Positions 1,131 to 33,986 of a stretch of DNA of 64,000 nucleotides are shown here, in pieces. Below the pieces are notes generated by a model. It saw only the letters and a program-made list of their open reading frames with translations, was not told the origin of the DNA and searched no databases. Source of the DNA: Heptranchias perlo (lineage: Eukaryota); contig NC_090325.1 of NCBI RefSeq assembly GCF_035084215.1, positions 121,892,001 through 121,956,000 on the forward strand. Reading direction: 5' to 3'. Each line of letters begins with the position of its first letter. The first letter of the stretch is position 1. The position numbers and the translations under genes were made by a program.

Positions 1131-3152
1131 AATTCCTCCTTTCTCCCACAAAATCCATGGTTGCAATGGCCCTTTAAATACTCCAGGTCCCAGCACATCA
1201 TATGGGTGTGCAGTGCACCCACTGCAGACTTGGAGATGCAAAGCTTGGAAGTCACATTAAGGACCTTCAATTGAGTCGCCATCGCTCGAGAAAATGCACA
1301 AAAATTTTTCCGGGCTTCCCGCATGTGTATTGACCCCTCTGCTGAGATCCTGCGGTATGTTAAAATTTACCCTGATGTCTCTGATCCCTGCATTTCCTGG
1401 GAAGCCTTCACAGATTAGGAATAAAGGCCTGGATTTTCCTGATGTTCATGGGCTAGCAGCGAGGTGGAACCTCTGCCCGCTGCTTTAACCCCAATGCTAA
1501 CCTCGACCCATTCTCCTGGATCGGGACTCATCAGGTATGTAGGGCAGGTTTTCTGGTGAGACCCTCACCGCCAAGAGGGAGCCAGCTATTGTGACACCAG
1601 TGCTGCAGCACCTGAAGAGTTGGAGAGAATTTAAAGTGGATGGAAGAGCCTCAAAGAGGAAAAGTAGATTTTTTTTAGGCCTTAGCCAATTCCAAGGCTT
1701 AAAAAGGTTATTGGTTAGGGTCTCCATGGAGGGACATCAGTCCACTACTAGGCCCCCTCCCTCCATCCGTCTAGTGATTTGAGGGCTACCGCCACTACAC
1801 CAGGGACCATCACTACCCATTTCCTGGTGAACTCTACCAGCACCTGACCTCCTCTATGATTGCTGCTGAATCAAGATGGTACTGCAAAAACTGCTTGCAG
1901 GGAGCATTGCTCTCAGTGCCACTCCACAGCATCATAGATTGGCAGTGAGGTCGGTGCAAGAAGCTGCAGTCAAGTTTCAGGCCACAGCTGACCATTACCA
2001 TCCCTGCACATGTGGAAGCTCTATGCTACATGGTAGCCACTGGTATTTTTGCAGCAGATGGCACAGCTTGGCATCTTCCCCTCTGTTGATCCAGACCCTG
2101 AGAAGGCAAGTTTACCACAGTCATTCCCAGATACATTTGCATGGTCGGCAGAAATGTTTGGTGGCATCTTTGTGGCATGCCTTCTTTCGTGCTGTACCAT
2201 GTGAGGCATGGCATGCTGTGATTGGAATGCCTCTGCAAAACCTCCCAGCATAAGGATGAGTTAGACATTTTGCATCTCATTGTGATGCCACCATGGGTCT
2301 GCTGGCACAGGTTTCATTGGAAAGAGGACACCCCCCCCCCATCAACACAATGTCTTCCGAAGTGAGGTATGCCACATGTCCCTGCAGAAGTGGGGGTGTG
2401 AGTGGCAGTGGGTGGGCACACAACACTTCTTAAAGCATTCTGACCCACCTGGCATTCCTCCACAGGAGCCCTTGTTTCTCCAAATATGAGGACTCCTGGT
2501 GGGGGCGTGCTGGACATCAATAGCAAAGAAAATCGGTGGGGTGTAAAACGGGCTGCTGATTCGCTATCGCCTCATTTGTGCTGCCACCGAAGACCAATTT
2601 CGCCCCTTTAGTGCCCTCTTTAAATGTTTAAATATTTAAATGTCATCTGGAGTAACTATCAGATTTGATGGCTAGGAAACCCTCTATTCATTATATTTAT
2701 CTCATGGGCAAAGTCATAGCGGGTACTTTGCTCAGCCCCAGGGATGACAATAACACAGGAAGGCAAGTCAAGCCATCAGAATGTGTTAGGAACAAACTAT
2801 TAGTAAAAATGATACTGTATCCCTGTCAGACCACCCAAGATGCCGCGATCCCTGCTGGCTGTATCCAAGGCCCCCTATCCCCCCCCCCCCACCCAACCCT
2901 GCTGGTGGCATTAGCATCTCACAAAACGTACCCCAATGACTCATGCTTAGCAATGGTGCCAAAAGCCCTCTAAGACCCCATTCAAGTCACCAATTTTCAT
3001 GTATGAGCATAGACAGTGAGTGCGGGAAGGTTATTCAGCCATGGGGCACAGGATATTACAATCCCGTAGTCTCCTCATGTGATGTCCAAACATGGTGCCA
3101 CCATTGGAATCTTAAAACAAATTGTCAGTGATGAGCAGATTGGAGCAAAGCT

Positions 3153-3376
3153 AAACATTGACCCAAAGAGTTACTTGGTGTATAAAACAATCTGATTTCT
3201 TGGAATTCACACGGGTTCACCAACACAGGCTGCTGTTTGAATGAAGTCTGACTCTGGAACTTCCTTAACCACTGAACAAACCCCAGGGGGAGGAGTCACC
3301 ACAGCTACACACTCAACATTTTCCAAATCTGGAAACTGAAACTTGAACCAGCTCCAGATATCCCTGAAGCTCTTAC
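3153..3376. promoter_or_regulatory. Candidate IFN-responsive enhancer, copy 1 (GAS + kB-like + ISRE)
   Basis: TTCTTGGAA 3197-3205 (TTCN3GAA), TGGAACTTCC 3255-3264, GGAAACTGAAACT 3331-3343 (reverse complement AGTTTCAGTTTCC, ISRE consensus). Identical to 33763-33986. Confidence 0.6.
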
Positions 3377-3429
3377 TTCATCACTAACTTGCTAATGGAC
3401 AGTGACTGTGATAGACATTTGTTGAGGCA

Positions 3430-4483
3430 TGTAAGAATATGGTTTGAAACAAGTATAGACAATACCAGCTCGCATAGCACCAAGCATCTTAGCAAGAGAA
3501 CGGATGTAAAAGGAGGTCGAAGTTCAGCGTCTCTGTGAGAAAGATAACTTACAGAAACCCAGGAGGTGATTGAAAGAATGCTGAGGCGCTAGAATAGTGA
3601 AAAACTAGTAAAATTCAAGAGACAGTTTGTACCGAATAGTATAAACGTACTAAGACCTGATAACAGTGATAGACTATGTAAGCAATAAGACATCGCAGAT
3701 GCCAAGCAAGGTCGAGGTGGAACAAACTGTTTATGCAGCAGAGATAAGAGATAAGGTAGCCACGCTGACATAGTATGGCCATCCTTGGTGGTTTTTGACA
3801 GAGTTGGCACAGTGCGATGGTTTACAACCAGGAGATAAGGACAGAGATGCTTACGTGCAGAACAATGCAGCAGAATAATATAAAGATAGGGCTTGCTCTC
3901 CCCAAAAAGTTAGAGCTCTTGAGATGGAACGGCCAGGAGCTCATTGACCCAGGCAATCCATGGAGGTCAGGTCTGATCACCCTGAATCCGAAGGAATCAG
4001 GTTGCATTGATTGCTTGTCATTTAATATAATCTGAAGACAGTTGTATTACATCTATAACACTGTTGTGCGTCAATCTATTAAAGCTTGCTATTTTATAAC
4101 CACTTGGGCTTGCACATACAGCAATTATTATTGAAGGATTAATAACCCTTTTGTAGTGACAAAAAATGCAAAATCCACTAATATAAGGCATCCCTGGGTG
4201 GGCCCGAGTTTTAAAGGTTTGGAGTAGCTGGTGTTAAGAGATTGTAATAGGAGTAATTCCAACGAGACGGGGAGGAAGAATAAGTGGTTGTGACCGAGTG
4301 AGCTAAAGATAGCCACTCCTCAAACCCGTAAAAGAAGACGGGGAGGAGGAATCTATAATACTGTTGTGAGTTAATCTATTAGGGCTTGTTATTTCATAAC
4401 CACTCAGACTCGTATCATGCAGCAGTTATTGTTGAAGGATTAATAACCCTTTGTATCGACAGTAACGGGAAAATCCACTAACA
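3430..4483 (+). mobile_element. Solo LTR (ERV/Gypsy-like), about 1.05 kb
   Basis: Starts TGTAAG, ends CTAACA; flanked by AGGCA / GGGCA (5-bp TSD with one mismatch); TATA-like TATAAA near 3880 and ATTAAA near 4078; absent from paralogous sites at 21478, 38500 and 57357. Confidence 0.7.
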
Positions 4484-4747: not shown

Positions 4748-7700
4748 TTTTTTTTTTTATTCGTTCACGGGATGTGGGCGTTGCTGGCAAGGCCGGCATT
4801 TATTGCCCATCCCTAATTGCCCTTGAGAAGGTGGTGGTGAGCCGCCTTCTTGAACCGCTGCAGTCCGTGTGGTGACGGTTCTCCAACAGTGCTGTTAGGA
4901 AGGGAGTTCCAGGATTTTGACCCAGCGACAATGAAGGAACGGCGATATATTTCCAAGTCGGGATGGTGTGTGACTTGGAGGGGAACGTGCAGGTGGTGTT
5001 GTTCCCTTGCGCCTGCTGCCCTTGTCCTTCTAGGTGGTAGAGGTCGCGGGTTTGGGAGGTGCTGTCGAAGAAGCCTTGGCGAGTTGCTGCAGTGCATCCT
5101 GTGGATGGTGCACACTGCAGCCACAGTGCGCCGGTGGTGAAGGGAGTGAATGTTTAGGGTGGTGGATGGGGTGCCAATCAAGCGGGCTGCTTTATCTTGG
5201 ATGGTGTTGAGCTTCTTGAGTGTTGTTGGAGCTGCACTCATCCAGGCAAGTGGAGAGTATTCCATCACACTCCTGACTTGTGCCTTGTAGATGGTGGAAA
5301 GGCTTTGGGGAGTCAGGAGGTGAGTCACTCGCCGCAGAATACCCAGCCTCTGACCTGCTCTCGTAGCCACAGTATTTATATGGCTGGTCCAGTTAAGTTT
5401 CTGGTCAATGGTGACCCCCAGGATGTTGATGGTGGGGGATTCGGCAATGGTAATGCCGTTGAATGTCAAGGGGAGGTGGTTAGACTCTCTCTTGTTGGAG
5501 ATGGTCATTGCCTGGCACTTATCTGGCGCGAATGTTACTTGCCACTTATCAGCCCAAGCCTGGATGTTGTCCAGGTCTTGCTGCATGCGGGCTCGGACTG
5601 CTTCATTATCTGAGGGGTTGCGAATGGAACTGAACACTGTGCAGTCATCAGCGAACATCCCCATTTCTGACCTTATGATGGAGGGAAGGTCATTGATGAA
5701 GCAGCTGAAGATGGTTGGGCCTAGGACACTGCCCTGAGGAACTCCTGCAGCAATGCCCTGGGGCTGAGATGCTTGGCCTCCAACAACCACTACCATCTTC
5801 CTTTGTGCTAGGTATGACTCCAGCCACTGGAGAGTTTTCCCCCTGATTCCCATTGACTTCAATTTTGCTAGGGCTCCTTGGTGCCACACTCGTTCAAATG
5901 CTGCCTTGATGTCAAGGGCAGTCACTCTCACCTCACCTCTGGAATTCAGCTCTTTTGTCCATGTTTGGACCAAGGCTGTAATGAGGTCTGGAGCCGAGTG
6001 GTCCTGGCGGAACCCAAACTGAGCATCGGTGAGCAGGTTATTGGTGAGTAAGTGCCGCTTGATAGCACTGTCGACGACACCTTCCATCACTTTGCTGATG
6101 ATTGAGAGTAGACTGATGGGGCGGTAATTGGCCGGATTGGATTTGTCCTGTTTTTTGTGGACAGGACATACCTGGGCAATTTTCCACATTGTCGGGTGGA
6201 TGCCAGTGTTGTAGCTGTACTGGAACAGCTTGGCTAGAGGCGCAGCTAGTTCTGGAGCACAAGTCTTCAGCACTACAGCTGGGATGTTGTCGGGGCCCAT
6301 AGCCTTTGCTGTATCCAGTGCACTCAGCCGTTTCTTGATATCACGTGGAGTGAATCGAATTGGCCGAAGACTGGCTTCCGTGATGGTGGGGATATCGGGA
6401 GGAGGCTGTGATGGATTATCCACTCGACACTTCTGGCTGAAGATGGTTGCAAACGCTTCAGCCTTGTCTTTTGCACTCACGTGCTGGACTCCGCCATCAT
6501 TGAGAATGGGGATGTTTGCAGAGCCTCCTCCTCCCGTTAGTTGTTTAATTGTCCACCACCATTCACGACTGGATGTGGCAGGACTGCAGAGCTTTGATCT
6601 GATCCGTTGGTTGTGGAATCGCTTAGCTCTGTCTATAGCATGTTGCTTCCGCTGTTTAGCATGCATGTAGTCCTGAGTAGTAGCTTCACCAGGTTGGCAC
6701 CTCATTTTTAGGTACGCCTGGTGCTGCTCCTGGCATGCTCTTCTACACTCCTCATTGAACCAGGGTTGATTCCCTGGCTTGTTGGTAATGGTAGAGTGAG
6801 GAATATGCCGGGCCATGAGGTTACAGATTGTGCTGGAATACAATTCTGCTGCTGCTGATGGCCCACAGCGCCTCATGGATGCCCAGTTTTGAGCTGCTAG
6901 ATCTGTTCTGAATCTATCCCATTTAGCACGGTGGTAGTGCCACACAACACGTTGGATGGTGTCCTCAGTGCGAAGACGGGACTTCATCTCCACGAGGACT
7001 GTGCGGTGGTCACTCCTACCAATACTGTCATGGACAGATGCATTTGCGACAGGTAGATTGGTGAGGACGAGGTCAAGTAAGTTTTTCCCTCGTGTTGGTT
7101 CGCTCACCACCTGCCGCAGGCCCAGTCTAGCAGCTATGTCCTTCAGGACTCGGCCAGCTCGGTCAGTAGTGGTGCTACCGAGCCACTCTTGGTGATGGAC
7201 ATTGAAGTCCCCCACCCAGAGTACATTTTGTGCCCTCAGTGCTTCCTCCAAGTGGTGCTCAACATGGAGGAGGACTGATTCATCAGCTGAGGGAGGACGG
7301 TAGGTGGTAATCAGCAGGAGGTTTCCTTGCCCATGTTTGACCTGATGCCATGAGATTTCATGGGGTCCAGAGTCAATGTTGAGGACTCCCAGGGCCACTC
7401 CCTCCTGACTGTATATCACTGTACTGCCACCTCTGGTGGGTCTGTCCTGCCGGTGGGACAGGACATACCCAGGGATGGTGATGGAAGAGTCTGGGACGTT
7501 GGCTGAAAGATATGATTCTGTGAGTATGGCTATGTCAGGCTGTTGCTTGACTATTCTGTGGGACAGCTCTCCCAATTTTGGCACAAGTCCCCAGATGTTA
7601 GTAAGGAGGACCTTGCAGGGTCGACTGGGCTTGGTGTTTTGCCGTTGTCCTGTCCGGTGCCTAGTGGTCCGATGCCGGGTGGTCCGTCCGGTTTTATTCT

Positions 7701-7899
7701 TATTATGACTTTTCGTAGCGAGATTTTACAACTGATTGGCTTGCTAGGCCATTTCAGAGGGCAATTAAGAATCAACCACATTGCTGTGGGTCTGGAGTCA
7801 CATATAGGCCAGACCGGGTAAGGGCGGCAGGCTTCCTTCCCTAAAGGACATTAGTGAACCAGATGGGTTTTTACGACAATCCGGTAGTTTCATGGCCAT
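4748..7899 (-). mobile_element. Near-full-length compact non-LTR retrotransposon (CR1/L2-group-like), about 3.15 kb
   Basis: Poly(A) tail at 4748-4758 (T run on +), AATAAA in the short 3' UTR, candidate TSD CAGGGC at 4742-4747 and 7900-7905, long APE-RT ORF. Confidence 0.9.
4813..7584 (-). CDS. LINE ORF2: APE endonuclease + reverse transcriptase, 923 aa
   Basis: Endonuclease motifs ILTESYL, YRPP, GDFN, LDLVL, SDH; RT motifs GPDNIP, NYRPISLL, QFGFR, LDIKAAF, GVPQGSVLGP, FADD. No internal stops; the annotated start is not an ATG. Confidence 0.92.
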   Translation of the reverse strand: MPKLGELSHRIVKQQPDIAILTESYLSANVPDSSITIPGYVLSHRQDRPTRGGSTVIYSQEGVALGVLNIDSGPHEISWHQVKHGQGNLLLITTYRPPSADESVLLHVEHHLEEALRAQNVLWVGDFNVHHQEWLGSTTTDRAGRVLKDIAARLGLRQVVSEPTRGKNLLDLVLTNLPVANASVHDSIGRSDHRTVLVEMKSRLRTEDTIQRVVWHYHRAKWDRFRTDLAAQNWASMRRCGPSAAAELYSSTICNLMARHIPHSTITNKPGNQPWFNEECRRACQEQHQAYLKMRCQPGEATTQDYMHAKQRKQHAIDRAKRFHNQRIRSKLCSPATSSREWWWTIKQLTGGGGSANIPILNDGGVQHVSAKDKAEAFATIFSQKCRVDNPSQPPPDIPTITEASLRPIRFTPRDIKKRLSALDTAKAMGPDNIPAVVLKTCAPELAAPLAKLFQYSYNTGIHPTMWKIAQVCPVHKKQDKSNPANYRPISLLSIISKVMEGVVDSAIKRHLLTNNLLTDAQFGFRQDHSAPDLITALVQTWTKELNSRGEVRVTALDIKAAFERVWHQGALAKLKSMGIRGKTLQWLESYLAQRKMVVVVGGQASQPQGIAAGVPQGSVLGPTIFSCFINDLPSIIRSEMGMFADDCTVFSSIRNPSDNEAVRARMQQDLDNIQAWADKWQVTFAPDKCQAMTISNKRESNHLPLTFNGITIAESPTINILGVTIDQKLNWTSHINTVATRAGQRLGILRRVTHLLTPQSLSTIYKAQVRSVMEYSPLAWMSAAPTTLKKLNTIQDKAARLIGTPSTTLNIHSLHHRRTVAAVCTIHRMHCSNSPRLLRQHLPNPRPLPPRRTRAAGAREQHHLHVPLQVTHHPDLEIYRRSFIVAGSKSWNSLPNSTVGEPSPHGLQRFKKAAHHHLLKGN

Positions 7900-9937
7900 C
7901 AGGGCCTTGTCCCAGGGTCTGCAAGCATGGGGATGAGATGTCAGGGTCTATCAACACTGCAGGAAAAGGATCCTAGGAGATGACAGCCTAGGGAGAGTAC
8001 AAGAGTCTGGAGCACTGAGGGAGATCCGGAACTAAGAATAATTCCAGGTTCCAGCAGCACTAAGGGTTGGGTAGCACTGAGCGATGTGCATCTAACTGCA
8101 TGGAGAGAAGGGAAAGGGAAAAGGATCTGCAAGCAGTGGGGAGTGGCTACCTGGGATCTGATAGAAGTTGGCAGATTCTTTACAGCCTTGTGGTCATGTC
8201 CAAAAGTTTGAGAGTGTGGTAGTTTGTGCACCTGGGTCGGTCGGCATTGGGGGTGGAGGGTCCTAGGGTGTGAGGAGTGTGATGGGTTCTGCGGCACTGG
8301 GGTGGACCTGGGGTATGTAAAAAAGGTCAACACGTATGGGTTCTGTAGGCAGTTTCATTTTCTGGGAGAACTGGGGGGCACTGACATCGTGGGGCTTGGA
8401 AGTACTAGCGGGCTCGAGGGGCTGGATGGCCCACTCCTGCTCCTATTTCTTATGTTCAGAGGGATCCTCGAATCTAGCAACACTGAGAAGGAGATCCTGA
8501 AACCTAGTGCGAATGGAGGCAGCAGGTCTGCTTAGGTGAGAGGGGGTGCACAAGTTCAGGCCAGGTGAGACACTCAGTGGGAGATGAGACAGGAGGGGAG
8601 GAGAAGCAGGAGTCAGGGTCATATCCCTGAGGAATTTTCTGACCAGTAGGTTTTGTGGGGTGATGGTTCGTTGAATCAAGGCTATAATGTCACTCAGAAA
8701 TTTCCCAAAGTATTTCACATTTCGGAGCAAATGTGTACAAGGGGAAGACTTCTCCATATTTCTGTTTCCAGATAGTTTTGGGTATACACAGCTTGTCTGA
8801 TGTTCTTCTTTTGCAAACGAAACTTTCAACATAACAAAAACTCCCCTTTCATTTTAATGGTCAGTCGCAGCCCTTTAAGAGCTACTGCATCACCAGATTT
8901 CCCACTTCCCCTGCAAATCATATTGCAAATCATATTGCTCCCTGAGCCTGTTTAAAATGAACAGAGTTGGACTCACAAAATTCAGCGAGGACAATCCTCC
9001 CAACCAGCATAGGCTGGGGTCGAATTTAACTGCCCTCACCTGATGTTAACCAGGTAACCAAAGTGCTCGCCTGATTCAGGTGATAGGCCCCTATTAATAT
9101 GTAAATCGGGGTCCTATGACATAAATAGGACCCAGATCTCCATTGTTCCCTGGGCGATGGAAGAGAAGAGGCCCTCTAAAGGTGATTGTTGAATTATGTT
9201 TGTATGCCCCGGAGGAGCAGGAGTGCAACTCTGGGACCCACAAAAATAATCTGGGCTGTTGCCGCCGTGGGGACCACACCCTGACGACCCCACCCTCCGC
9301 GATCATAACCCCCTCCCCCCCCTCCCCCATCGTAACTTCCCTTGCTGGTGGCAACTCAGGCTTGATTTTCATGGCTGCCCAAAAGGCAAAATTTTCCCCG
9401 TGCTCTCATGCCAGCTGTGCGCAGCCCCTATGTTCCTGATGCAACGCCAACACCATGGGAACACTAAATCTTTCATTCATTTTATATATAATGTTGAATA
9501 CTTTGACTGAAAACGCGTTGCAGATAAAAAAAATCATGGCAACTAACATCCACAAACATATCTGCACCATTGCAATTATTCAAAATCGGAACATACGTTT
9601 TCTAAGTGAGCAAAGATGTATCTCAGCTGTGCAACTGGGAATATCAAGTTCGAGGATGGCACATTTCCTGTAATTGACAAGTTTCAGCTGAGCGATGTGT
9701 TTCCTTTTTATTATAACCCAAGGATCAGTTCCAAGTCTGTAAGTTGACCTTGTCCCGTGGGTCAGATACAATATGTGGATACAAATGAATTATTCTGCCG
9801 TCAATCTAAAACCGTTCATCTGGGGCTAATAAATAATTAATCATACCTTGTGATACCTGGATCCCTGCAAAGTCTCAACTGCATTTTAACTCTATGTCAA
9901 TCATGGCTGTTTGAATAATAAATAATCAAGAAAATTA

Positions 9938-12222: not shown

Positions 12223-12739
12223 TCGAATAGCAAAATAAAACATCTCTGTTGGTACAATAACACTGAAGATATTTCTCCTCCTGAGCTGAAGCTGCTGCAT
12301 CATCAGGCTCAAAATTCATTGCAAGTGGCAACTGTCACCAACTTTAGAACTACATTCACAGCTCTTTCCAAAGCTGGAGCATTAATGCCCAAAGAGTCAC
12401 AATATAAAGTACAGCCAGTGAGAGGGAGAAATATTTTCTGTAAACCACAGACATTAGCTCCATTGTCTGGTCTGTGTTTCCTCTTACTATAGTGAGAAAG
12501 ATCAGTGTTAAAAATACATTGAGGAGTTCCCCAGTGGGTCAGGTATAAGACTTGGAACTGGATTATTCTGCAGCTCATCTGATGCTGCTTGCTTCGGGAA
12601 AAACAATAAAAAGCATCAAATTATGTGACACGACCTTATCAATGTTTAATTGTCTGTCATTAACGGTTGTGTAAAAATAAAAGGAAGATATTATCAACAA
12701 CACTCAATAAGAATTTGTTTAGATAAGTTTTCCTTGGCC

Positions 12740-13909: not shown

Positions 13910-14035
13910 GCAAAAATGAAAGAACATCTAACTCAGGAACAGGGAAATTCCCTTCCACAGGAGCTTCCTATATTTGACAACTTTCTCTGCTCGAGATTAC
14001 TAAAATTGAGAGTAGAGGATCTCAATAAATAGGAG
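13910..14035 (+). promoter_or_regulatory. Proximal promoter of chemokine copy 1: NF-kB site, IRF-E-like site, TATA-like box
   Basis: GGGAAATTCCC at 13942-13952 (canonical kB), AAATGAAA just upstream, AATAAATA at 14024-14031, about 125 bp before the ATG; same layout in copies 2 and 3. Confidence 0.7.
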
Positions 14036-14152: not shown

Positions 14153-16085
14153 ATGAACAGAGCAGCTACTGTGACGATTCTCATCCTGATTCTGTGTGCC
14201 ATTACTGCACAGGGTATGTTGACCTTTGTAATCTTGTGTTTTATTTCTCATTATACTGTATTGTGGAAAGGAGTCTTTCTGTTGAGTTACTGATCCAGCT
14301 ACACATGTCCCGGTGTGATGTTTGGTTATGCATCGAATAATGCTGAATTCTCAAACAGAGCTGCATTCAATAATCTTAATCCCCTTTAACCCAGAACTTT
14401 ATGTTTATAAAAGATTTTCTTGCACATTTTTATAAAAAATATGATAGTCATCTCCAGGTTAATGTAATCAGCATGATTAGTTTGGACAGATACTTAATAT
14501 TTCCTTGTGGACCATGTGTGGAAAAAATTTAAATACCTCAACTCTGATACAAAGTGCCAGGATTCTCTTCACCTCAATCGATAATTAAATCTAAGTTAAA
14601 TGGATCTTTTCACAGGTATTCCAGTTCCAGGAACCCTAGGTCATTGCCAGTGCACTCAGAACAGCTCCAATTTTATCAATCCACGGCTCATCCGGAGTTT
14701 GAAATATATTCCCGAAGGATCCCACTGTGAGACACCAGAGATAATGTGAGTAAATGTGTCAGAACATCAGCATTAACATTTCTCCTTCGGTGACGTCCAT
14801 TTAATAAACTGTGCTCTTTATTCAAAATATGTTGGATCAATCACAGTTTGTTTATGAGGCACATTCGAAGGATTTTCTTTTAATACTTTTGCTAATTTCT
14901 CACCTTTCAGTGGGAGACATCCAATTTCTGTGGATTAGATTTTAAAGGTTTACCTTCTCTTCACAGTGTTACCAAAAGAAATGGGAAAAAATTATGTGTG
15001 AGTCCTGATGCCGAGTGGGTGAAGATTATCATTAAAGGCAAGAAAGGTTGGTGTTTGGCAGAATTAAGACTTTGCATATGAATAAAAGCAGATACAGTGA
15101 ATTGTTTTTTATAAACCATGTTTGTCCCTCTCCTCCTTGGTCGAAGGCGTTGACTCCTCTCTGCTGTATATTTCCACAGGCTTTTGATGCCTTCTGGTAC
15201 TTTATCCAATTGCTCATCATTTATGTGTGAGCCTTGACAGTGAATGTTAGCAAGCTATTCAACCACAGTTGGCATCAGGGCTGAGCCTTACGCTCGCCTC
15301 ACCCAACATCCAAATATGGCACTTCCAGGAGGGGGGGTCACTGGATAGCAATCAGGTGAAGGAATGCTGGGTGATTTTATGCTCTCTCTCCCAACAATAC
15401 TGAGACCAATTGTCGTACCTTTAGTACCCAGCTGAGATCAGCCAATTAAGCACAGAACAGGGTCCTTAAGAATAAAATATTTAATATATATCCTAACCAC
15501 TTCCACTTCCTTTTTCTGCTGCCTGCCTTCCTCTATGGCAAGCTCATATTCTGTTCTGCAGTTTGAACACTGTAAACTACTTCAAAGAATCATTTTTTAA
15601 CCTTTTATTATCCATTCTATTTTACACTTTAACGTAATGTGTTCCTGCAGACTCCCATCAGAACTGAGATTTAAAAGGATACTTTTTTCAAGTTATATAG
15701 AAAAGATGTTTGTGAAAATCTCGACCAGCTATTCTCACAGTTTTGTGTCATCCACCGTTGTCAGAACTCAGGATTTTGTTCAGCATTTACTGCCTTTGCA
15801 TTATTCCGCAAATGTGCTTGATTCACCAGGATGGAAGGAAGAGAAATAATTTTTCTCTCTGGCCCCATGCATCCTGCATGTTAAACCATATTACAAAATC
15901 AATGACTTGGGAATAAAATCATCAGTGTTAGCAATGCTGCTCATCTTGTGTAAAAGTCAGATTGATAATGCTCCATAATTATATTGCTGAAGATATTGTG
16001 CACTATATTAAAGTAAATATCTGCAGTTAGTGGGTAAAAATATTATTTATTTTATTTTATTTCAGATGCCAGACGACACAACTGA
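14153..16085 (+). CDS. CXC chemokine copy 1 (non-ELR, CXCL9/10/11-like), 4 coding exons, 96 aa
   Basis: Exons 14153-14213, 14616-14745, 14967-15046, 16066-16085; all GT-AG, phases 1/2/1 as in CXC chemokine genes. Translation MNRAATVTILILILCAITAQG-IPVPGTLGHCQCTQNSSNFINPRLIRSLKYIPEGSHCETPEIIVTKRNGKKLCVSPDAEWVKIIIKGKKDARRHN: signal peptide, C-Q-C, GSHC..EII, LCV.P.A.WV motifs, four Cys. Confidence 0.95.
15225..15462 (-). mobile_element. Old SINE-like fragment in intron 3 (also near 28680-28920 and 47540-47775; related sequence near 2980-3060)
   Basis: Dispersed similarity within the window (GTGAGCCTTGACAGTGAATG.., CCCAGCTGAGATCAGCCAATTAAGCACAG); family assignment uncertain. Confidence 0.35.
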
Positions 16086-16733: not shown

Positions 16734-18133
16734 CTATTGTTTACCCACAGCTTAAGGAAACAGTCAGACATTTTTTCTGAAACTTTGTGCCAAGAATGTG
16801 TAAGATTTTTAAGTGTGGACTCTGATACTGTTACAAGTTACACTGCGACTGAATTCAATTTGTTTACATTTCTCCATAATTATTGGAAAATAATTTCCAA
16901 TCAACAAAAGGTGCAGATACAGGGGGAAATATGAATAGATTTGTTTCACTGGGGAGTCTCACGAGCCCCTGGAAAGCTGTGCTGGAGGCGTTAAATTTAA
17001 AGTTAAGTCAAATTCAATTTAAGAAGACCTACTAACGTCTCACAAGGCCGTTAATTGATGCAATATAAACCCACCCACCTGAACTAATTCAGGTCCCACT
17101 GCGGCGAGTAGGCCTCTCGCACGCATCTAAACACGCCTCCGTTAAACCTGGAAGTGGAAACTAATTTCCAATCAACAAGCAACGACAGGGGGAAATATGA
17201 ATAGATTTGTGAACTTGTCGAGGAATGTAAACGAGACAAAAAATGTCAGTTGTTGAATGTTAATGTTTGAAATAAGAGTGGGACCTGCTGCTAGTTTTGG
17301 AATAACTCAAATTATTCAGTTCCATGCATATATTTTTCAAAATGAACTTGTAATAATTTCTTCATCACAGACATGTTTTACCTGGAAAGAGAGGCTGAAA
17401 ATCTAAAAAGGTCCAAATTAGAAGAATTATCCTTTGTTATTTCAGTTAAAATGATCTGGAATCAGATTGGAGTGAAATATCTAATAAATTAAATAAAGAC
17501 ATTCCTCCTATTACTTGTAGATATATTGTAATGCTTCATTGTTTCAAAATCATTGACAAACCAATTTTGGTGCAATTTCTCTTTTCCTACTGAAACCCTG
17601 TTGATATTCTTTGTGATATGTTGATGGCAAGATATACAGAAGATAAATGTTTATAATTGTTCACCAAACATATTCCCAGTTCCAGTTTGAATGAAAACTT
17701 TTATATTAAAATACACAACCATTGCCTGTCATTAACACTGATGCCATTTTACTGCAGTGTTTATTGGTCACTGACATTTTAACTGTATCCTGGGAATTTG
17801 TCCATAAAACATCAGGCCTTAGAATCTATCCAAAACTGAAGTTTGTGGAAGCAATTTCTCTGTAGAAATGATACTGTGTGTAAAATACTTAAATTTTCAA
17901 AAGTAGTGCTCCTTATTGTGTGATATTAACTGGAAGAAATGACATTTGTAAATAGAACTAATCTCTGTACAGTGATCGGTAGAAATCTTTGGCACTGGAT
18001 CCAGTTGGCTGGAAGTTGTGTTGAGTATAACACTGATTTATCAGTCAGTAACGTTGCTACAAGTGACTTTTGTTGTGAATTAATCTTTTGAGTGTTTTTG
18101 TACCTTTATCTTCAAATGTATTTAAGTGATTAA

Positions 18134-18139
18134 AATAAA
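18134..18139 (+). terminator. Putative distal poly(A) signal of chemokine copy 1
   Basis: AATAAA at the end of a long AU-rich tract and followed by GT/T-rich sequence; homologous hexamers at 30988, 34571, 49846 and 53429. Other AATAAA hexamers lie upstream, so the true site is uncertain. Confidence 0.4.
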
Positions 18140-20099
18140 CATGATTTCATATGAAGAATGTATTGTCACTGTTCCTCAATCACCAGCAAAACAATCGTGT
18201 GTCTCTCCAGTAAATAAATTTAGTGGACTGACTAATAAAGAGAAATCTGTTCAGGGTACACTTTAGACAATGATTGGCATCAACGAGGTGGGCAGGTTAT
18301 TAAAATGGCAGGTGGAGGGAGTTCACACAGGGGCCTAGTTTACAATCAAAACTCATGCCCGATGATGTTATTGGCGCCACAATGCAATTTCAATTCAGGG
18401 AATCGGTGGGGGTGGTGGGTGGGCGGCCGGGGAGGCGCCTCACGGGGCCAAACCCGACAGCCCGACAGTCAGGTCATGGCGGTAGTCAGCAGAGTGCCTC
18501 GACAAAGTCATGGTAACTCTTTTTATTTAATTTTTCTGTGGATTTGTCTGGGCCTCAAGGAGCAGGAGTGCTCCCCTGGGCCCGGCAAGTAGTTGTTGGG
18601 CCTCCCCTGCACCGGCCTTCCTTCTCCCTCCCAGCAACAGCACCTCCTCTCAATCACCTTCAGCCAACCCAGCACTAACTTTATGCCAGGGACTGTTCCC
18701 TTAGATCCCCGGAGGCTTCAAGCTCCCACTCGAATATCCGCTCCTGTCCACCGACCCTGACCTCAATCCCGCTGGTTTCGGGCAGGAGCCAATGCCGCAC
18801 TATTCATCTTGGTAAAGGCGTTTGCACGGGTGCTTAACGAACGCCGGCAGTATGCTCCTGGCATTTACCTCCTCCACTTTTCCTCAACTATTTCCTCCCA
18901 CTGCCCCTTCAACATACGGCTGGTGGGCCTCCTGGTCCCCTGTGGATACAGGATGAACCTCCTTCTCTCCATCTCTTGCAACAAGGCCTGCAGTGCATCA
19001 TCAGAGAACCTTGGTGCACACTCCCTCCCAGATGCAGCCATTCTTCAAAGTATCGCAGCACGGATTCAGTTTTGAAACGACTCCCACCACTTCTTGCAGC
19101 CACAGCTCAGGAACTAAAATGGTACGACCTTCGTGCTCAAATCTCCGTGGGTGTTTCCCTCCCGCCCGCACCCCGCCCAGGATGCCCTGAGTTAAAATCA
19201 CCCCCTGTAAGTGTTGGTTTCTCCAGAGTGAGCGCTTGTCAGATGTCGTATTTTTATTGAAGTGAAGTATCGGATAACTGTAACGTAACTAAGTCCTATA
19301 AAACCCTTAATACATGCGTGTGGAGACAATGTCAGTTTAGAGATCTTCGATGATCACTGGCAGGATGTTGGTTGCCCCCCATTTAATGTGGCAATAACGA
19401 ATGAACTGATGGGGTTTAAGATCCAATCTTCCTGGGCCACCGTTGCTAAGGACGCCAAATCAATTCCTGGGACCTTCATTGAGCTGAAACTTTGTCATTG
19501 TTTTTTATATTTTCTAATTAGATTAGGATTGGTCCCGGTCATGTCACCGGGCAGATCGTTTCCTCTCTGCTGCCTGAATAATGCAGTCATGCGGTGTTAA
19601 CTGGGATTGCTATTGAATTCTAACCAGGGGAAATATTATGGTGAATCGCCAAGTGAGAGGCAAGCATTTTGCAGACATTGGAGGCACTAATCGCCCTTAG
19701 GTGTATGATCCGCCTGAATCCTAAGTGCGAATAACACTCAATTTTCTGGCCTAGCCTCATTTGGATAATTATTCACAATTGCAGTGGAAAACCAGGTGGG
19801 TCGAGGGATGAAACAACTGGGAGGAGAAGAAAATTGTGTGCAAGTCAAATTGAAAGGGATGGAGTCAATTAAAGAGGAGTGTCACAAGGAAGGGGACTAA
19901 GGCCCCGAATTTCCTGAAATTTGCACCAAACAGCAGCAGAAGTGCAGCATAATGCAAATTTTCAGTGCGGATTCGAGGAAATTCGTCCCTTTGTGACTTA
20001 CGCCAGTTTTATGCTGCATCTCAGTTACCTTCATCTTTTGATTTGAATCAGCAAAACCTCTACCGATTCGCTCTGCCGTTCATTAAAGTAGCGCAGAAT

Positions 20100-20340
20100 G
20101 CCATCTTGGTAAAGACGTTTGCGCGTGTGCGTAACGAACACCGGCAGTATGAACCTGGCGTTTACCTCCTCCACTTTTCCTTCAATATTTCCTCCCACTG
20201 CCCCTTCCACATATGCCTGGAGGGCCTCCTGGCCCCCTGTGGATACAGGATGAACCACCTTCTCTCCATCTCTTGCACCAAGGCCTGCAGTGCATCATCA
20301 GAGAACCTTGGTGCACACTCCCTCCCAGATGCAGCCTTCC
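20100..20340 (-). mobile_element. Harbinger-type Myb/SANT N-terminal remnant (copies near 18830-19042, 32660-32850, 37130-37315, 51520-51708, 55985-56172)
   Basis: Minus strand reads AASGRECAPRFSDDALQALVQEMERRWFILYPQGARRPSRHMWKGQWEEI, similar to the start of the 884-1324 domain. Confidence 0.6.
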
Positions 20341-21210
20341 TTCAAAGTATCGTAGCACAGATTCAGTTTTGAAACGACTCCCACCACTTCGTGCAGCCAC
20401 AATGTACCTTTCCTTTAAGAGGTGCGGGCTGCCTTCAAGAAGCACGAGCAACTCGCGATATCGGGACTCCCTGCTGATGCGTGCAGCCAATCAACAGTGC
20501 AATTAGCGCTGGCTGCATGCAGCAGTCATTTAAAACAGCAGGCAGCGTTAATGTAACCTTTTCAGGGGATTATCCAATTTAACCCTCGCCATGCCTAATG
20601 TGCATAAATCATCGTCTGATGGCTTCACATTTTAATTTCTATACATAAAGTGGGGCTTCAATAAAAATATGGAGTAATTTCTGCACTGTCCTCAGGCCCC
20701 ATTAGTTTAAGTTGATTTCCATTTGGTTTACGCTGATTTTTATGTTCCTGAGATTATCACAAATTTTTGGCGTACATTTCCATATAGAAGTTGTTAAAAC
20801 AAATCAAAGCATCTTACAGCACAGAACGATGCCATTCGGCCCATCATGCCTGTGCTGGATCTTTGAAAGAGCTATCCAATTAGTCCCACTCCCCTGCTCT
20901 TTCCCCATAGCTTGCAAATTTTTCCTTTTCAAGTATTTCTCATAAAAGGGACAAGACTACATTGTGTTAAATCAAAACTGGAAAAATACAATGATGGCCT
21001 CTCTTGTGAATATTCTTTTCATTTACTGCCATTTGCCAATTTATTGCTGAACAAGGCAAATATACGAACAGGTCAGGGTGCAGCATGTGATAAAATGTAT
21101 TGATTTATTACACCCATTTCTCTCTAAACAGTAATCGAATGAATAAAATCTGATGCCACTAATGGAGTCTTAAAACAAATTACCAGTGATAAGCAGATGG
21201 GAGCAAAGCC

Positions 21211-21431
21211 AAACATTGACCCAAAGAGTTACTTGGTGTATAAAACAATCTGATTTCTTGGAATTCACACGGGTTCACCAACACAGGCTGCTGTTTGAAT
21301 GAAGTCTGACTCTGGAACTTCCTTAACCACTGAACAAACCCCAGGGGGAGGAGTCACCACAGCTACACACTCAACTTCCAAATCTGGAAACTGAAACTTG
21401 AACCTGCTCCAGATATCCCTGAAGCTCTTAC
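21211..21431. promoter_or_regulatory. Candidate IFN-responsive enhancer, copy 2
   Basis: GAS 21255-21263, ISRE 21386-21398; 3-bp deletion between them relative to copy 1. Confidence 0.55.
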
Positions 21432-22377
21432 GACATCACCAATGTATTAATGGACAGTGACTGTGATCGACATTTGTTGAGGGAAAAAGTGATATCAGCA
21501 CAAGTTTTCTTACATTATAGAATCACAGAATCTTACGTGCAGAAGGAGGCCATTCGGCCCATTGAAAGAGCTATCCAATTAGTCAAACTTTCCCGCTTAT
21601 TCCCAAAGCCCTGTAAATTTTCCTTTCCATGTATATATCCAATTCCCATCACTAGCAGATTACTTGTGTGGTTGCTCTGGTTAGCGAGGGAGGGGGGATA
21701 GGCCTCGAGGTCTGAAAAGATTGGTGAGGGGTTAACAAGAGTTTGGTATCATTGGGATTGTGGAATATGGGGTCCGGTTTAGCACGTGATTCCTGGATCT
21801 CAATGTTAACCCCCGCACGATGGGTGGGAGAGTGTCAGAGCGGGGGGATTAAAAAATAAAAACGTGGATTGCATCCGGAAACCATCACGTCCGTGCCCAG
21901 TGCCATTTTTACAGCGGCGGTTAGAGTGACATGCGAGTCTCCCACCCTCGAGGGATGGGACATTTCATTAACATATTTAAATCATGCTCCCCCGGTCCCT
22001 CAAAGAAGCCTTCGGCCTCCCCACTGCTTAACGCGGCCTCTCTCTACCCTCTACTACGACCACCCCCACAAAAGCTCCGTACTCTCGCTCCCTCCCTCCC
22101 GATGACTGCTCTCTTCCACCCCCCCCACAAGCCCCGTTCTGTAGCTCCCTCCATCCCGATTGCCACGGAGAGCCCCGAAGTTTCCTCTTCTGCCTCCTCC
22201 TGCCGCTGGTTTTCCCGTCCAGCCAGCCTGTCAATTTGGCAGAAAATGGAAGGAAAACATTTGAATGAGATGCTGCCGTTAAATTCGGCAGGACGTCCGT
22301 GTCCCCGGCCTTGCCAGGTTTTCCCCACTACCGCAGCCCCCTGCAGACTCCCTGCCGACCTGTAGATTTCAGGCCCC

Positions 22378-23188
22378 TGGGAGGCAATTTCAACTCCCAA
22401 AAACAGGTGGGTTGGGGGTGGGTGGGCAGTAAAAATAGTTTGTTTTTGGAGTGGGACCGCATCCAGGCTCAAATGCGCTCACTTCCGGGTTTAATCAATG
22501 GGCGTTTCGATAACAGAAACCTGGAAATCCCGTCCCCATTTAAAGCCGACGGGCCAACGTTGAAATGGGCAATGCGCCTCATTGCAATAGTTGAGGCACT
22601 TAATTTTTTGTGTATTAGAAATGTCAAAGGAATTTTACTTTACCGTTCGGGTTTCCCATCGCTTCTGATTCACGTCAGGTGAAAGCAGGCGGGAGGGACT
22701 GGATCCATGAGGTGAGTCACTTTATTGCACTGCTTGTGGGCCCGGAGGTGCTGCATCCAGGCTCAACAGGCCCACTTGGCGTAATCGGACCCACGCGATC
22801 AGCCGACCCCTGCACCTCACCATGGTGGGCCCCCCGATGCTAAACCCCAACACCCTGCTGCTGGACCCCCTCCGATCTCCGATCTTCTCCAAGGCCTACC
22901 CGATGTTGTCCACGTGCCCCCACCTCTCCCCACCCACCAATTTCTTCCACGGCCCATGATCGCTCTCTCCTTCTCTCCCCCTTCTCCGATTAGCGACTCC
23001 TTTCCCTCCTGACAGACAACCATCCTGTCAATCTGGCTGACTGATGTGTGGGAAACCCGGAAGCACAAATACCTACCTTCAATTGAGTTGCAATCAGATA
23101 TCGTGATGCACTCACTTGACTTCTGGGTGCCCCATGTAAATATCTACGCACACACTGGGTTCCCAGTCCGAGCTTAAATCATGCCCCA
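22378..23188 (+). mobile_element. Non-autonomous DNA-transposon-like element (copies near 39399-40207 and 58256-59065; relatives at 44286-45057, 63142-63913 and 5'-truncated 25669-26208)
   Basis: GC-rich, non-coding, loose terminal inverted repeats (GGCAATTTYAACT ... AGCTTAAATCATGCCCC), shared internal core with other copies. Confidence 0.5.
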
Positions 23189-24804
23189 CACGTAATAACA
23201 CTGAGATGGAGATCCTGATGTCTGATGAAAAGAGACAGCCTGTCAGCTCGGGAAAGATAGGAGACAGCACTTCAGGCAGGTATGGGTGTAGGACAGGAAG
23301 ATCACTGGAGGGGGAAGTGCTGTAATCATTGAAATGAATTTAAAGGAGCTTGGTACGATTATTGCACGTAATATCATATTATTTTTAATTAATATGAAAT
23401 GATATTTAAGTTAAACCTAAAGATGCTGGAACTGATGGTTGGAGTTGCTGACAGCAGGGTCACTCTGAGTTGGGAGATTCAAGTCAGGAATTAGGAGAAC
23501 TGGGGGGGGTGGTGTCATGTGAGAAGAAAGAGACAATCAGATAAATAAAGGAATCGGGTTAAAGGTAGTGGAGCCAAGATTTGTGGGGTGGGAGAGGGAT
23601 GAACTGGAATAGATCACCCGCAAGAGGCCAGGAATCTGGGGCAGAGCCTGGATCCAACAGATTTAAGAAGTGGCCCATGGATTGATTGGGGTGGGCTGTG
23701 GGTAAGTCTTACGTTGCGTGACCCGTGCCCGCAGTCAGCATTGAGGACATGTCAGGTGGTGTTCCCAGTCTGTGCTGTGAATTCCACTCAGCATTGCTTC
23801 GTTCAGCTCAGTAGAAGCCACGTCTGATGAGATTAGACATTGGCTCCATTCTGGGCCTGGTGAATTCTCCAGACAACTCAAGAATTAAAGGTAATCGATC
23901 CCAGAGGGGATGGATATCCTCACACTGCTGGACTTTATCTTCCTGTGGAAAAGTTATTTTTAATTTTAATCTTGCACCTTTGGCCCTGTGAGGACCTCTG
24001 CCTCCCCCATCCCCATTGGAATGGCAGGGTGCAGCTCCAATTTTATGGCTCATCCTTGGGGTGGGTACCTCTGCAGCACTGAAATAGGTCAGGCAGCCTG
24101 CTTCATTTACTAAAAGGGATCCAGCCCTGTGATTTAGGACCGGGCCAACATCCTCACCCGTTGTCAAATAGGATCCTGCTCTGCTGCACTTCCAGTGGTG
24201 GAGCCAGGACCCTGGATTTTCAGGTCAGTAAGTTTCATCGTGATCGAAAAGCATTTCTGATAGGTGTGACCACCCACACTCGCTCCCAGTGAGGATCCTG
24301 TCATTGATCAATTGGAATACTCAATCTTTCATCCATTTTTATATATAATGTTGAATACTCTGACCGAAAACGCATTGCAGATGAAAATTCATCACATCAA
24401 ACATCCACAAATATATCTGCACCATTACAGCTTTTCACAATCAGAACATGCACTTTTTAAATGAGCAAAGATGCATCTCAGCTGTGCACCTCATGTTATC
24501 AAGTTCGAGGATGGCTCATTTCCTGTAGTTCACAAGTTTCAGCTGAGCGATGTGTTTCCTTTTTATTTTTACCCAAGGATCAGTTCCAAGTCTGTAAATT
24601 GACCTCGTCCCGTGGGTCAAATACAAAATGTGGAACTGGAATATTCTGCAGTCAATCTGAAACTGTTCACCTGGGGAAAAACAGCTAATGTACGAATAAT
24701 CATACCTTGTGATATGTGGATCTCTGCAAAGTCTCAATCGCATTTTAACTTTGTGTCAACCATGGCTGTTTAATTAAAAAACAATTAAGAAAATATCCAC
24801 TAAC

Positions 24805-25040
24805 TAAAGAATATTCAGGGATGAGAAAAGGTCACTTTGCCCATTGAGCTCATCACTGGTGTTTATTAACTCACTCAACCTAAAATCCCACAGCATCTGG
24901 AACTTGTCTAAAGTCTCTGATTTCATTACCCTGCCTGGCACATTATTTGAAATGTTTATCACCTTTTGAGTGAAAGATTTTTTTCTAAAATGTTTCAATG
25001 TACTTTTTACTATTTTAAACATATGTTCTCCTATTCAGCC
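24805..25040 (-). mobile_element. Highly degenerate CR1 3' fragment (also near 41825-42060 and 60682-60917)
   Basis: FRKKSFTQKVINISNNVPGRVMKSETLDKF resembles the CR1 FFTQRVVNxWNxLP..V C-terminus. Confidence 0.55.
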
Positions 25041-26297
25041 GTCCTGACTGACCTTCCAGCAATATTGTGGGCTTACCTTATTTACGCTATTTGATAGCAT
25101 ATAAGTAGTAGCGAGATCTCCCATTAACCAAAGTGTTGGCTTTATGAGCTGTGATTGTATATTAAAAATAGAATGATAGAATATGCAAATGACTGCTGTC
25201 AAATTTTGAAAAATGTCAGCAGATATTATAATAAATGATCAAGATTCTCTTCTGTTGTTAAATATATGAACCTCCTTTTGTATCTTCAGAACTACATACA
25301 TTGGAAAGAATTACAAGGAATGGGTATGGAGCAAACTCCAATACCCATTGACGTAGTGTTCACTAATATACCACTCGTCCCTGTATAATATAATACAGCC
25401 CTGACTGTAATAACAACTGAAGTAACACTCATTCATTTACAACAGCTCCTGATGGAGCATGTAGGGACAATGAGACTCTAACATAGGAAATATACACAGT
25501 AAAATGTTCTCTCTATAGCTTGCATGTCTCAATAGAAACGCCCTCATGTGTACAACATTAGTTATCACATTCTCATATTTCATGACACCTGATCCCTATT
25601 CTCTCTAATGTTGAAATAAAGGAATATAAAACACCTTGCACGCTTTTAACTATGACCTACATACAATTAGAAACATCAAGTAAATGTAACAGTTCCTGTT
25701 CATGTTTCCCATCACTTCTGATTCATGTCAGGTGAAAGCAGGTGAGAAGGAACAATCCATGAGATGAGTGCCTTTATTGCACTGTCAGCAGGCCAGGAGG
25801 AGCAGGAGTTCTTCATCCAGACCCCAAGCTCACCAGGCATAATCGGACCCACCCCATCGGCCGACCACTCCCCACTGATGCTGGACTGCCCCTGATGCTG
25901 GACCCCATCACACCCCGAATGCTAAACCCCCACATAATGCTGGATCCCCCACCCCGATTGTCTCGAAGGCCAACCCGATTTCTTCCATGGCCCACGATTT
26001 ATCTCTCCCTCCCTCCCCCCTCTCCAACTCACAGCTCCATTCCCTTCCGACAGGCAGCCAACCTGTCAATCTGGCTGCCTGGTGCACACATACTTACCTT
26101 CAATTGAGTTGCGATTACAGTTTGCGATGCACTCACTTGACCTCCGGTTTCCCTGCATGAATATCTAAGGACATGCTGGGTTCCTGGACCCGAGCTAAAA
26201 TCATGCCCTTGCTCTCCTGGTGCTGAATCTCACGCGAGGATTTCCAGATCAGAAAATCTGATGCAAAGATGATCGTGTGTCTTATGTGGCACTCCCA

Positions 26298-26447
26298 ATC
26301 TTCAAGGTATTAAAATGATCCATATATCAATGATCACTAGTCAAGAACAGTTGTCAATAGAATAGAAATTATGATAATTTCTAGTCTATTGGTTACTGAC
26401 CTTGACTAGTGATCATTGATATAGAGATAAATTAATCACTTGAAGAT
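26298..26447. repeat. 150-bp imperfect palindrome / MITE-like hairpin
   Basis: TATATCAATGATCACTAGTCAAG (26323-26345) is the exact reverse complement of 26401-26423; outer ATCTTCAAG/CTTGAAGAT and inner CAATAGAATAGAAATTAT/ATAATTTCTAGTCTATTG also pair. Confidence 0.85.
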
Positions 26448-26550
26448 CGTTTGAAGAAGAAGGCTCACCACCACCTTCTCAGGACGACTAGGGGTGGGCA
26501 ATAAATGCCAGCCTTCTCGCGATGCCCATATCCTGAGAATGAATCATTTA
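26448..26550 (+). mobile_element. 3' tail of the LINE family at 4748-7899 (also 45296-45398)
   Basis: GAAGAAGGCTCACCACCACCTTCTCAGG..GGGCAATAAATGCC matches the reverse complement of 4760-4855. Confidence 0.7.
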
Positions 26551-27427: not shown

Positions 27428-27550
27428 CAGAAGTGAAAGAACCTCTGACTCAGGAGCTGGGAAATTCCCTTCCACAGGAGCTTCCTATGTTTGACAATTT
27501 TTACTGCTCGAGATTATGCAAATTGAGAGTAGAGGATCTCAATAAATGGG
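27428..27550 (+). promoter_or_regulatory. Proximal promoter of copy 2: IRF-E, AP-1, NF-kB, octamer/CEBP-like, TATA-like
   Basis: AAGTGAAAG 27431-27439, TGACTCA 27446-27452, GGGAAATTCCC 27459-27469, ATGCAAAT 27516-27523, AATAAAT 27541-27547. Confidence 0.7.
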
Positions 27551-27657
27551 AGCTCATTGGACCTCTCTTCAACAGAACTTCATTCAGCAGAGAGAGAGTC
27601 ACTGAGGTGGACAGAAGATCCTTCAGCAGAAATCCATTCAGCAACTCAAAGTCAAAG

Positions 27658-33762: not shown

Positions 33763-33986
33763 AAACATTGACCCAAAGAGTTACTTGGTGTATAAAACAA
33801 TCTGATTTCTTGGAATTCACACGGGTTCACCAACACAGGCTGCTGTTTGAATGAAGTCTGACTCTGGAACTTCCTTAACCACTGAACAAACCCCAGGGGG
33901 AGGAGTCACCACAGCTACACACTCAACATTTTCCAAATCTGGAAACTGAAACTTGAACCAGCTCCAGATATCCCTGAAGCTCTTAC
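33763..33986. promoter_or_regulatory. Candidate IFN-responsive enhancer, copy 3
   Basis: GAS 33807-33815, ISRE 33941-33953. Confidence 0.55.

Follow-up and report, generated by a model that had tools for sequence, protein, structure and literature searches.

The closest described counterpart of the element analysed here is the distal GAS-ISRE-NF-kB site of mouse Cxcl10, for which binding and activity were shown according to the available part of PMC6558219. That site joins three motif classes at a distance upstream of an ELR-negative CXC gene, a proximal ISRE-kB site exists in addition, and the motif distances given there for STAT1-p65 composite sites range over 41-234 (GAS-kB) and 38-264 (ISRE-kB). 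A second system is the mosaic concerted evolution of the BMP8A/B, DDX19A/B, and TUBG1/2 pairs. In the available part of PMC2720389, sharp-edged homogenised islands of these pairs lie amid diverged stretches, paralogues resemble each other more than orthologues do, introns are carried with exons, and the upstream regulatory regions are diverged. The third is UMLILO, an lncRNA upstream of human CXCL8/1/2/3, which acts via WDR5-MLL1 (PMC10189238, available part). Among the papers searched on chemokines of sharks, on how these are regulated, and on enhancers under conversion, none described the present element or said which shark chemokines respond to interferon.

We analysed a stretch of 64,000 nucleotides from the shark Heptranchias perlo (the window), which carries 'interleukin-8-like' CXC chemokine genes and six copies of a 224-base block. 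Like the Cxcl10 site, the block holds three motif classes, here within about 150 bases, distally upstream of ELR-negative CXC genes; the gaps between its motifs, 50 and 66 bases, fall inside the mouse ranges, and with 6.2-12.5 kb to the ATG the copies are distal, as the mouse site is. Unlike the Cxcl10 site with its demonstrated activity, the shark block is a predicted enhancer, the shark promoters are devoid of a canonical ISRE, the shark kB site is weaker, the target genes score closer to IL-8, and the block has been multiplied and homogenised. By analogy the block would work like the distal Cxcl10 site, and it is a candidate element of that type. The sharp-edged islands, the greater likeness of paralogues than of orthologues, and the joint homogenisation of introns and exons recur in the shark array. 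Unlike in the mammalian pairs, homogenisation has reached a distal non-coding island in addition to the exons, and the array is tandem with changing copy number, so that unequal crossing-over acts too. The trait shared with UMLILO is non-coding transcription upstream in a CXC cluster, seen on the shark side as unstranded contigs of a second species only. The reading that we prefer, and to which we give about an even chance, is that the block is a non-coding element lying upstream, by 6-12 kb, of CXC chemokine genes arranged in tandem, likely multiplied with them and likely homogenised by conversion, and predicted to be a distal interferon-responsive enhancer.

Six block copies in a tandem chemokine array

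The window was found to be a tandem array with the unit order block, segment E2, segment E3, promoter, and gene. Features listed below without a strand were left unstranded. Three whole genes lie on the plus strand: gene 1 (14153-16085, product P0029), gene 2 (27658-29537, product P0001, with spliced joints in three RNA runs), and gene 3 (46505-48395, product P0028), their ATGs at 14153, 27658, and 46505. Each is split into four exons with GT-AG boundaries, has a reading frame of 96 codons, and matches Pfam IL8; the 96-aa product of gene 1 has no ELR, and all three are ELR-less like their elasmobranch family. The products are letter-for-letter equal to three Heptranchias perlo 'interleukin-8-like' proteins, and six gene records are clustered on one contig. 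No recognisable neighbouring gene was found in the window.

BLAST of 3153-3376 against the window returned six full-length matches, self included, at the positions that the original prediction had named. Copy 1 (3153-3376, 10.8 kb upstream of gene 1) is the 224-base core, a likely conversion tract and candidate enhancer. Copy 3 (33763-33986, 12.5 kb upstream of gene 3) and copy 5 (52621-52844, the twin of copy 3 within an 18.9-kb duplication) are both 100% identical to it, with 0 of 224 differences in the core, so that the predicted identity of copies 1 and 3 held exactly. Copy 2 (21211-21431, 6.2 kb upstream of gene 2) is 98.2% identical, with a 3-base loss and one substitution; copy 4 (38229-38452, 8.1 kb upstream of gene 3) is 99.1% identical, with two substitutions; and copy 6 (57086-57309) is 97.8% identical, with five substitutions that leave the ISRE broken. 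Copy 6 is a mosaic of copy-4-type and copy-2-type alleles. No tandem repeat was found within the block.

The edges of the core were abrupt. An older homology envelope surrounds copy 1 (3096-3427), and its flanks differ from those of copy 3 at 17 of 93 positions, 10/57 upstream and 7/36 downstream; the 42 bases next to the core upstream, which had been claimed to differ, do so at 6 positions. Mismatches stand at 3152 and 3377, and divergence beyond them is 17-19%. The contrast of the core with its own flanks in copy 1 gave P about 3e-9, and that with E2 plus E3 gave P 1e-12. The downstream flank, as predicted, is diverged and interrupted by an LTR: it is split by an LTR-like insert of 1054 bases (3430-4483, TG...CA), which has an internal 300-base repeat and whose 5-base target duplication agrees at 4 of 5 positions, and homology resumes at 4494 and 4607. 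On the minus strand, 884-1366 holds a Myb/SANT-like frame (Pfam Myb_DNA-bind_5), presumably a Harbinger-type transposon remnant, which probably took the place of the left flank of copy 1. Between block 1 and gene 1, also on the minus strand, an uninterrupted 970-codon LINE ORF2 (4813-7725) encodes an endonuclease domain and a reverse transcriptase domain; it is a young insertion.

All six copies sit in aligned paralogous units. An 18.9-kb tandem duplication (25666-64000, with 25666-45143 matching 44522-64000) is 99.0% identical, a patchwork of perfect and diverged stretches; 19104-25681 repeats as 36104-42702 at 95.6%, and 31531-34023 repeats as 35997-38489 at 97.7% (a 2.5-kb duplication). Copies 3/5 and 4/6 belong to the one 18.9-kb duplication and copies 3/4 to the 2.5-kb duplication. 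The six copies thus reflect duplication of their neighbourhood and are therefore not six independent pieces of evidence. The flanks of copies 2-6 are also alike (0-4%), and copy 1 against the rest is the sole informative contrast, because unit 1 is old by the divergence of E2 and E3. Between units 1 and 2, segment E2 (9455-9935, also at 24311, 41332, and 60189), our background control, shows 14.6 changes per 100, and segment E3 (12234-12717, also at 26641 and 45489), which has a kB-type site at 12523, shows 13.2 per 100.

Some features of the array stand apart from the block. E2 and E3 have a 75-base piece in common (12531-12605 vs 24609-24683, 76%), with a TATA-like word in the copy at 12543, and judged by sequence they appear to be old paralogues of a single upstream element or of a defunct promoter. 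Within the 18.9-kb duplication, some 6 kb (29703-35998 vs 48560-54856) are almost perfectly identical, in runs of 2038, 1917, and 1552 bases, against 1-3% difference in the gene region; a join made in assembly, unequal crossing-over, or conversion over a long stretch could account for this. A 26-base minisatellite of 9.6 copies lies downstream of genes 2 and 3 (30025-30273 and 48883-49131).

Probable gene conversion and possible selection on the block

The perfect identity of copy 1 with the younger copies is best read as the likely product of gene conversion over a tract of about 224 bases. Of the exact runs that units 1 and 2 share, the second longest has 217 bases (14771-14987) and covers intron 2 into the start of exon 3, and intron 2 differs at 1 of 221 positions while intron 3 differs at 61 of 1008. 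As intron 2 shows, a perfect tract need have no function of its own. Further homogenised islands between these units are exon 1, parts of intron 3, and a poly(A) region (18000-18337, plus strand) with four poly(A)-signal hexamers, likely the 3' end of gene 1; the block is the sole non-genic perfect island. At sites 3291 and 3350 each of the four possible allele combinations occurs in some copy, a four-gamete pair that recurrent mutation could also produce. GC is 0.44 in the block against 0.34-0.40 in its flanks, and 0.35 in intron 2 against 0.33 and 0.38 in introns 1 and 3.

The original prediction had left open whether selection or conversion kept the copies identical. Conversion was favoured by the sharp edges, the intron 2 tract, the four-gamete pair, and the comparison with a second species given below, and selection alone fared poorly, because the young copies carry six core changes (five substitution sites and one deletion), one of which hits the ISRE itself, and because an equally long perfect tract covers intron 2. 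Constraint fitted to 0/224 predicts 0.9-1.7 events among the young copies on assumed tree lengths of 4-8%, and six were seen (P 0.0003-0.008). Pairwise, copies 3 and 6 differ at 5/224 in the core and 9/600 in the flanks, and copies 3 and 4 at 2/224 and 1/600; between copies 2 and 3 the core is lower, with one change plus a gap, than the flanks, with 24/560.

A second species, organism B, allowed the block to be compared across species. One run holds 8 of 21 block words and three more hold 6 of 21, all from one study. Over 10 listed non-block pieces pooled, organism B differs from the window at 285 of 3155 letters (9.0%). By simulation, 8/21 words correspond to about 3% divergence; the probability of such a share at 9% is 0.007, and that of 6/21 is 0.027, while at 6-7% divergence, the low end of the background, the word-share P is 0.04-0.19. 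The block-bearing contigs of organism B are 10.2-10.3% different over block plus flank. Taken from word shares rather than from an alignment, and in a species found by virtue of holding the block, these figures suggest that organism B is less diverged in the block (about 3-4%) than nearby (9%), a two- to three-fold constraint. Copies 1 and 3 are identical, yet organism B carries at best 8/21 block words. Elsewhere organism B, at 9.0%, is nearer to the window than unit 1 is to unit 2 (13-15%), and the paralogues are therefore more alike than the presumed orthologue, a contrast that assumes the unit split to be older than the species split and in which organism B was compared over the copy-2 region.

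Ultraconservation through purifying selection alone, without any conversion, would explain 0/224 changes against a background of 13-18% and the position of all three motifs inside the identical core. We consider it very unlikely. It predicts about one to two young-copy changes where six were seen, a discrepancy that relaxation after duplication could soften; at the 3-4% divergence implied by organism B, whose copy is not identical, 9-15 differences would be expected between copies 1 and 3; and the four-gamete pair lies in the block. An assembly or polishing artefact seems very improbable; in that case reads from copies 3/5 would have replaced the core of copy 1, and some of the copies would be false duplications. 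The 18.9-kb duplication at 99.0% with perfect runs of up to 2038 bases would fit such an artefact, but the annotation has six such genes on one contig, three of them equal to genes 1-3 letter for letter, and a like patchwork appears at the exons, at intron 2, and between copies 2-6.

Conversion is thus the reading that we carry forward, and the striking identity of the block is mostly array mechanics. In the proposed history, the block would have been multiplied together with the chemokine genes by segmental duplication, and a conversion tract of about 224 bases would have made it identical between unit 1, which is old, and the younger units. For units that differ by 13-18%, conversion normally depends on a seed that was kept alike. 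Moderate purifying selection may have kept the block alike enough for continued conversion, while the flanks drifted out of reach. Within the genes, exon 2, intron 2, and exon 3 of genes 1 and 2 (14665-15065) are almost identical, with 4 changes in 400, and the residues ahead of CXC differ among the genes (TLGH, TQGR, TLGR); conversion appears from these sequences to spare the receptor-activating N-terminal end.

Motif content and the case for enhancer function

The GAS TTCTTGGAA (3197-3205), which matches TTCN3GAA, and the kB-like palindrome TGGAACTTCC (3255-3264) are present in 6/6 copies, as had been claimed for all the motifs. For the ISRE GGAAACTGAAACT (3331-3343, plus strand; canonical ISRE GAAANNGAAA) the claim stood in 5/6 copies and failed in copy 6, where the second GAAA is changed. 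The kB-like site fits GGRANTTCC on both strands, does not fit GGGRNWYYCC, and is without the GGG of the promoter kB site. A TATA-like TATAAAA (3181-3187, plus strand), of putative function, occurs in all six copies.

The 13-base ISRE has five matches in the 64 kb, all of them in the block, where 0.05 are expected per shuffled window; counted as one event, the five give P about 0.05 for the window. It arose in 31 of 50,000 shuffles of the block. The block ISRE fits the detailed ISGF3 consensus, taken from the available part of PMC6954429, at 15 of 16 positions, the base before GG being T. The GAS alone is at chance level, with 8 in the window against 7.85 expected and 5555 of 50,000 shuffles (11%) containing one. 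A loose ISRE, a GAS, and a kB site came together in 4 of 50,000 shuffles, with patterns picked after the block had been seen, and none of 137 other 224-base tiles in the window had even two of the three motifs. The predicted GAS/ISRE/kB cluster was borne out to the extent that an ISGF3-type ISRE lies in a cluster whose spacing resembles that of mammalian GAS-ISRE-kB sites; taken alone, the GAS and kB matches are weak. Together, the motif content and its setting indicate that the block probably functions as a regulatory element.

A high-copy dispersed repeat had been named as the outcome that would speak against the prediction. Judged from the placed contigs of a DNA run, the block is not such a repeat: its bin has a depth of 35, within the range of low-copy bins (22-41), where repeats reach thousands to hundreds of thousands, there is one contig at 21405, and all copies lie in paralogous flanks. 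Depth is not an exact measure of copy number, and this run could be the source DNA. For the 18.9-kb duplication, contig depths gave mutually inconsistent copy numbers and were set aside.

The proximal promoters carry other motifs. That of gene 1 (13912-14030, plus strand) has an IRF-E-like element at 13912, a kB site GGGAAATTCC at 13942, and a TATA-like box at about 14024. AP-1 (TGACTCA) is present in the promoters of genes 2 and 3, and gene 1 has lost the AP-1 match. None of the three genes has a canonical ISRE or GAS in the 600 bases before its ATG. The order of IRF-E-like AGAAGTGAAAG, AP-1, and kB GGGAAATTCC at 27429-27469 (46277-46317; 13912-13952) is reminiscent of the interferon-beta PRDI/PRDII arrangement.

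In the proposed mechanism, the ISRE would be bound by ISGF3 or by an IRF dimer and the GAS by a STAT dimer, which would open the site, and NF-kB may join at the weak site between them. The module would then loop to the AP-1/kB proximal promoters, 6-12 kb away and without a canonical ISRE or GAS, and interferon input would thereby be added to a pathogen-inducible gene. Sharks possess all three interferon types (PMC6640115, available part), and genes that carry a GAS as well as an ISRE respond to all interferon types according to the part of PMC11489399 that was available. The 9-mer of the block GAS is bound by STAT5 in human T cells (PMC3907443, available part). The GAS does not single out IFN-gamma, because it is ordinary on its own and its 9-mer is STAT5-bound.

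The main competing explanation is a neutral passenger: the block would be intergenic sequence carried along when the genes were duplicated and struck a single time by conversion, and its motifs, chance matches or relics, would be inert. The perfect tract of equal length in intron 2 fits it, as do the lost ISRE of copy 6, the flank-like rate at which the core of the young copies mutates, the chance-level GAS, and the observation that in mammals the majority of ISRE matches stay unbound; IRF3 occupied under 1% of the canonical ISREs in mouse cells in the available part of PMC6954429. However, a 13-base ISRE expected 0.05 times per window falls in the one non-genic perfect island, the motif cluster was found in only 4/50,000 shuffles, and the word share of organism B exceeds that given by 9% divergence. 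Conversion across 13-18% divergence also normally wants a kept-alike seed. We regard the passenger as unlikely.

The enhancer reading lends itself to experiment, since the 224-base candidate is directly clonable and copy 6 provides a natural ISRE-mutant control. If the block is active, interferon would regulate a large elasmobranch family now called 'IL-8-like', as it does CXCL9-11, and concerted evolution of a distal regulatory element with its genes would be shown, which was unseen in the mammalian pairs in the available part of PMC2720389. If it is inactive, the block would be an ordinary conversion tract in a tandem array.

Family placement and possible transcription at the locus

The genes had been given a CXCL9-11-like role. 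In a profile of 24 members, IL-8 scored best (62-66 bits), followed by CXCL13 and CXCL7 (61) and full-length CXCL10 (60), with mature CXCL10 at 48-49, CXCL9 at 48, and CXCL11 at 30-44. A single-sequence search, unlike the profile, ranked CXCL7 first; the two orders differ, and similarity therefore does not settle orthology. The profile search gave 78 matches, all from sharks and rays, of which two were named CXCL9-like, a name that is automated, as 'interleukin-8-like' is. Most of the 78 have QGR ahead of CXC, and ELR was found there in 0 of 81 fetched family proteins. The absence of ELR is not discriminating, because cartilaginous-fish CXCL8 also lacks ELR (PMC6145007, available part). For the elephant shark, the available part of PMC3568907 lists four CXCL8-group and no CXCL9-11-group genes, from a fragmented genome, and the main texts of PMC3964593 and PMC6795676 contain nothing on the present genes. 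A tree built from 53 of these 81 proteins, with sequences omitted that were long, partial, or in some cases redundant, groups those of the window in a separate clade (100/94); it contains no CXCL8 or CXCL9-11 reference, so that it does not place the family. The label 'CXCL9-11-like' is thus unsupported by protein similarity, though the genes may have such a role.

We then considered transcription. Contigs of 4 of 11 listed runs were placed on 20450-29950. X5, X6, and X9 have the spliced joints 28202-28424 and 28501-29516, and they contain chemokine mRNA, because spliced joints are present. X5 and X6, both of organism B, each have one unspliced contig (1121 or 1171 bases) across block copy 2, which begins at 21057 or 21112 and reaches 22061, extending in X6 as far as 22616. 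These contigs have a depth of 21-26, compared to 2.5-3.4 for the listed intron contigs; the organism B contigs are unstranded, give neither transcript ends nor level, and may include DNA. No RNA run containing block words was listed for the window's own species. Three runs of organism A guessed to be RNA contained next to none of the block words, and the one placed among them had no cover over the block, which is no evidence of silence. The organism B contigs hint at transcription across the block, compatible with enhancer RNA, lncRNA, or read-through; the enhancer reading itself does not call for such contigs.

The same contigs bear on the idea that the block is a promoter or exon of an array lncRNA, either UMLILO-like or an antisense RNA ending just to the left, and that this RNA or its promoter is what was constrained. 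Such an RNA would agree with the unspliced block-spanning contig in both organism B runs placed, at several times the intron depth and in runs that also carry spliced chemokine joints, with the TATA-like box at 3181, and with AATAAA on the minus strand at 21040 and 21104, close to where the contigs end; UMLILO works in cis on human CXCL promoters (PMC10189238, available part). Yet the contigs, which come from one study, start 130-180 bases ahead of the TATA-like box and give no strand, start, or level, and the block has no stable fold (z 0.10 and -0.83) and no Rfam match. We consider this decidedly unlikely as the explanation of the block, and the lncRNA and enhancer readings are not mutually exclusive.

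A more far-reaching version of the enhancer reading is that the block is a transcribed, interferon-driven master enhancer, kept in step by conversion like the exons. It would identify the QGR chemokines that elasmobranchs carry under the name 'IL-8-like' as the interferon-inducible equivalent, in sharks, of CXCL9-11, and distal GAS-ISRE-kB control of Cxcl10 would date to the jawed-vertebrate ancestor. This version we hold to be distinctly doubtful.

Other identities of the block were rejected. A structured RNA was dismissed on the two fold scores, 0 Rfam matches, and no tRNA, and a viral or microbial origin on 0 exact matches in viral contigs and metagenome contigs. A 56-codon minus-strand frame (3210-3377) is uninterrupted in every copy of the block, but at 4 of 5 substitution sites the encoded residue changes, Pfam gave no match, and phmmer over 1.84 billion proteins gave 3 matches, all of them to repetitive microbial sequences and over 17-37 residues; a coding exon was therefore rejected. 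One library 'protein', P0084, resembles a translated CRISPR-type repeat array and is a spurious match.

Two further observations concern RNA near gene 2. The promoter kB site leads straight into a pyrimidine-CAG|G splice acceptor (27459-27478, also 13942-13961 and 46307-46326), and a 1188-base X5 contig aligns only over 27476-27722, with 929 letters upstream unaligned, as if an unknown upstream exon spliced in. Low-copy non-coding sequence 2-3 kb upstream of gene 2 (24853-25548, and 24090-24736) lies under a 701-base X5 contig at depth 228, the X5 chemokine mRNA contig having a depth of 751, and 24853-25548 is thinly covered in X6. Contigs there end close to poly(A) hexamers of the minus strand (24862 and 24769), and the region 24853-25548 is possibly an upstream or antisense lncRNA.
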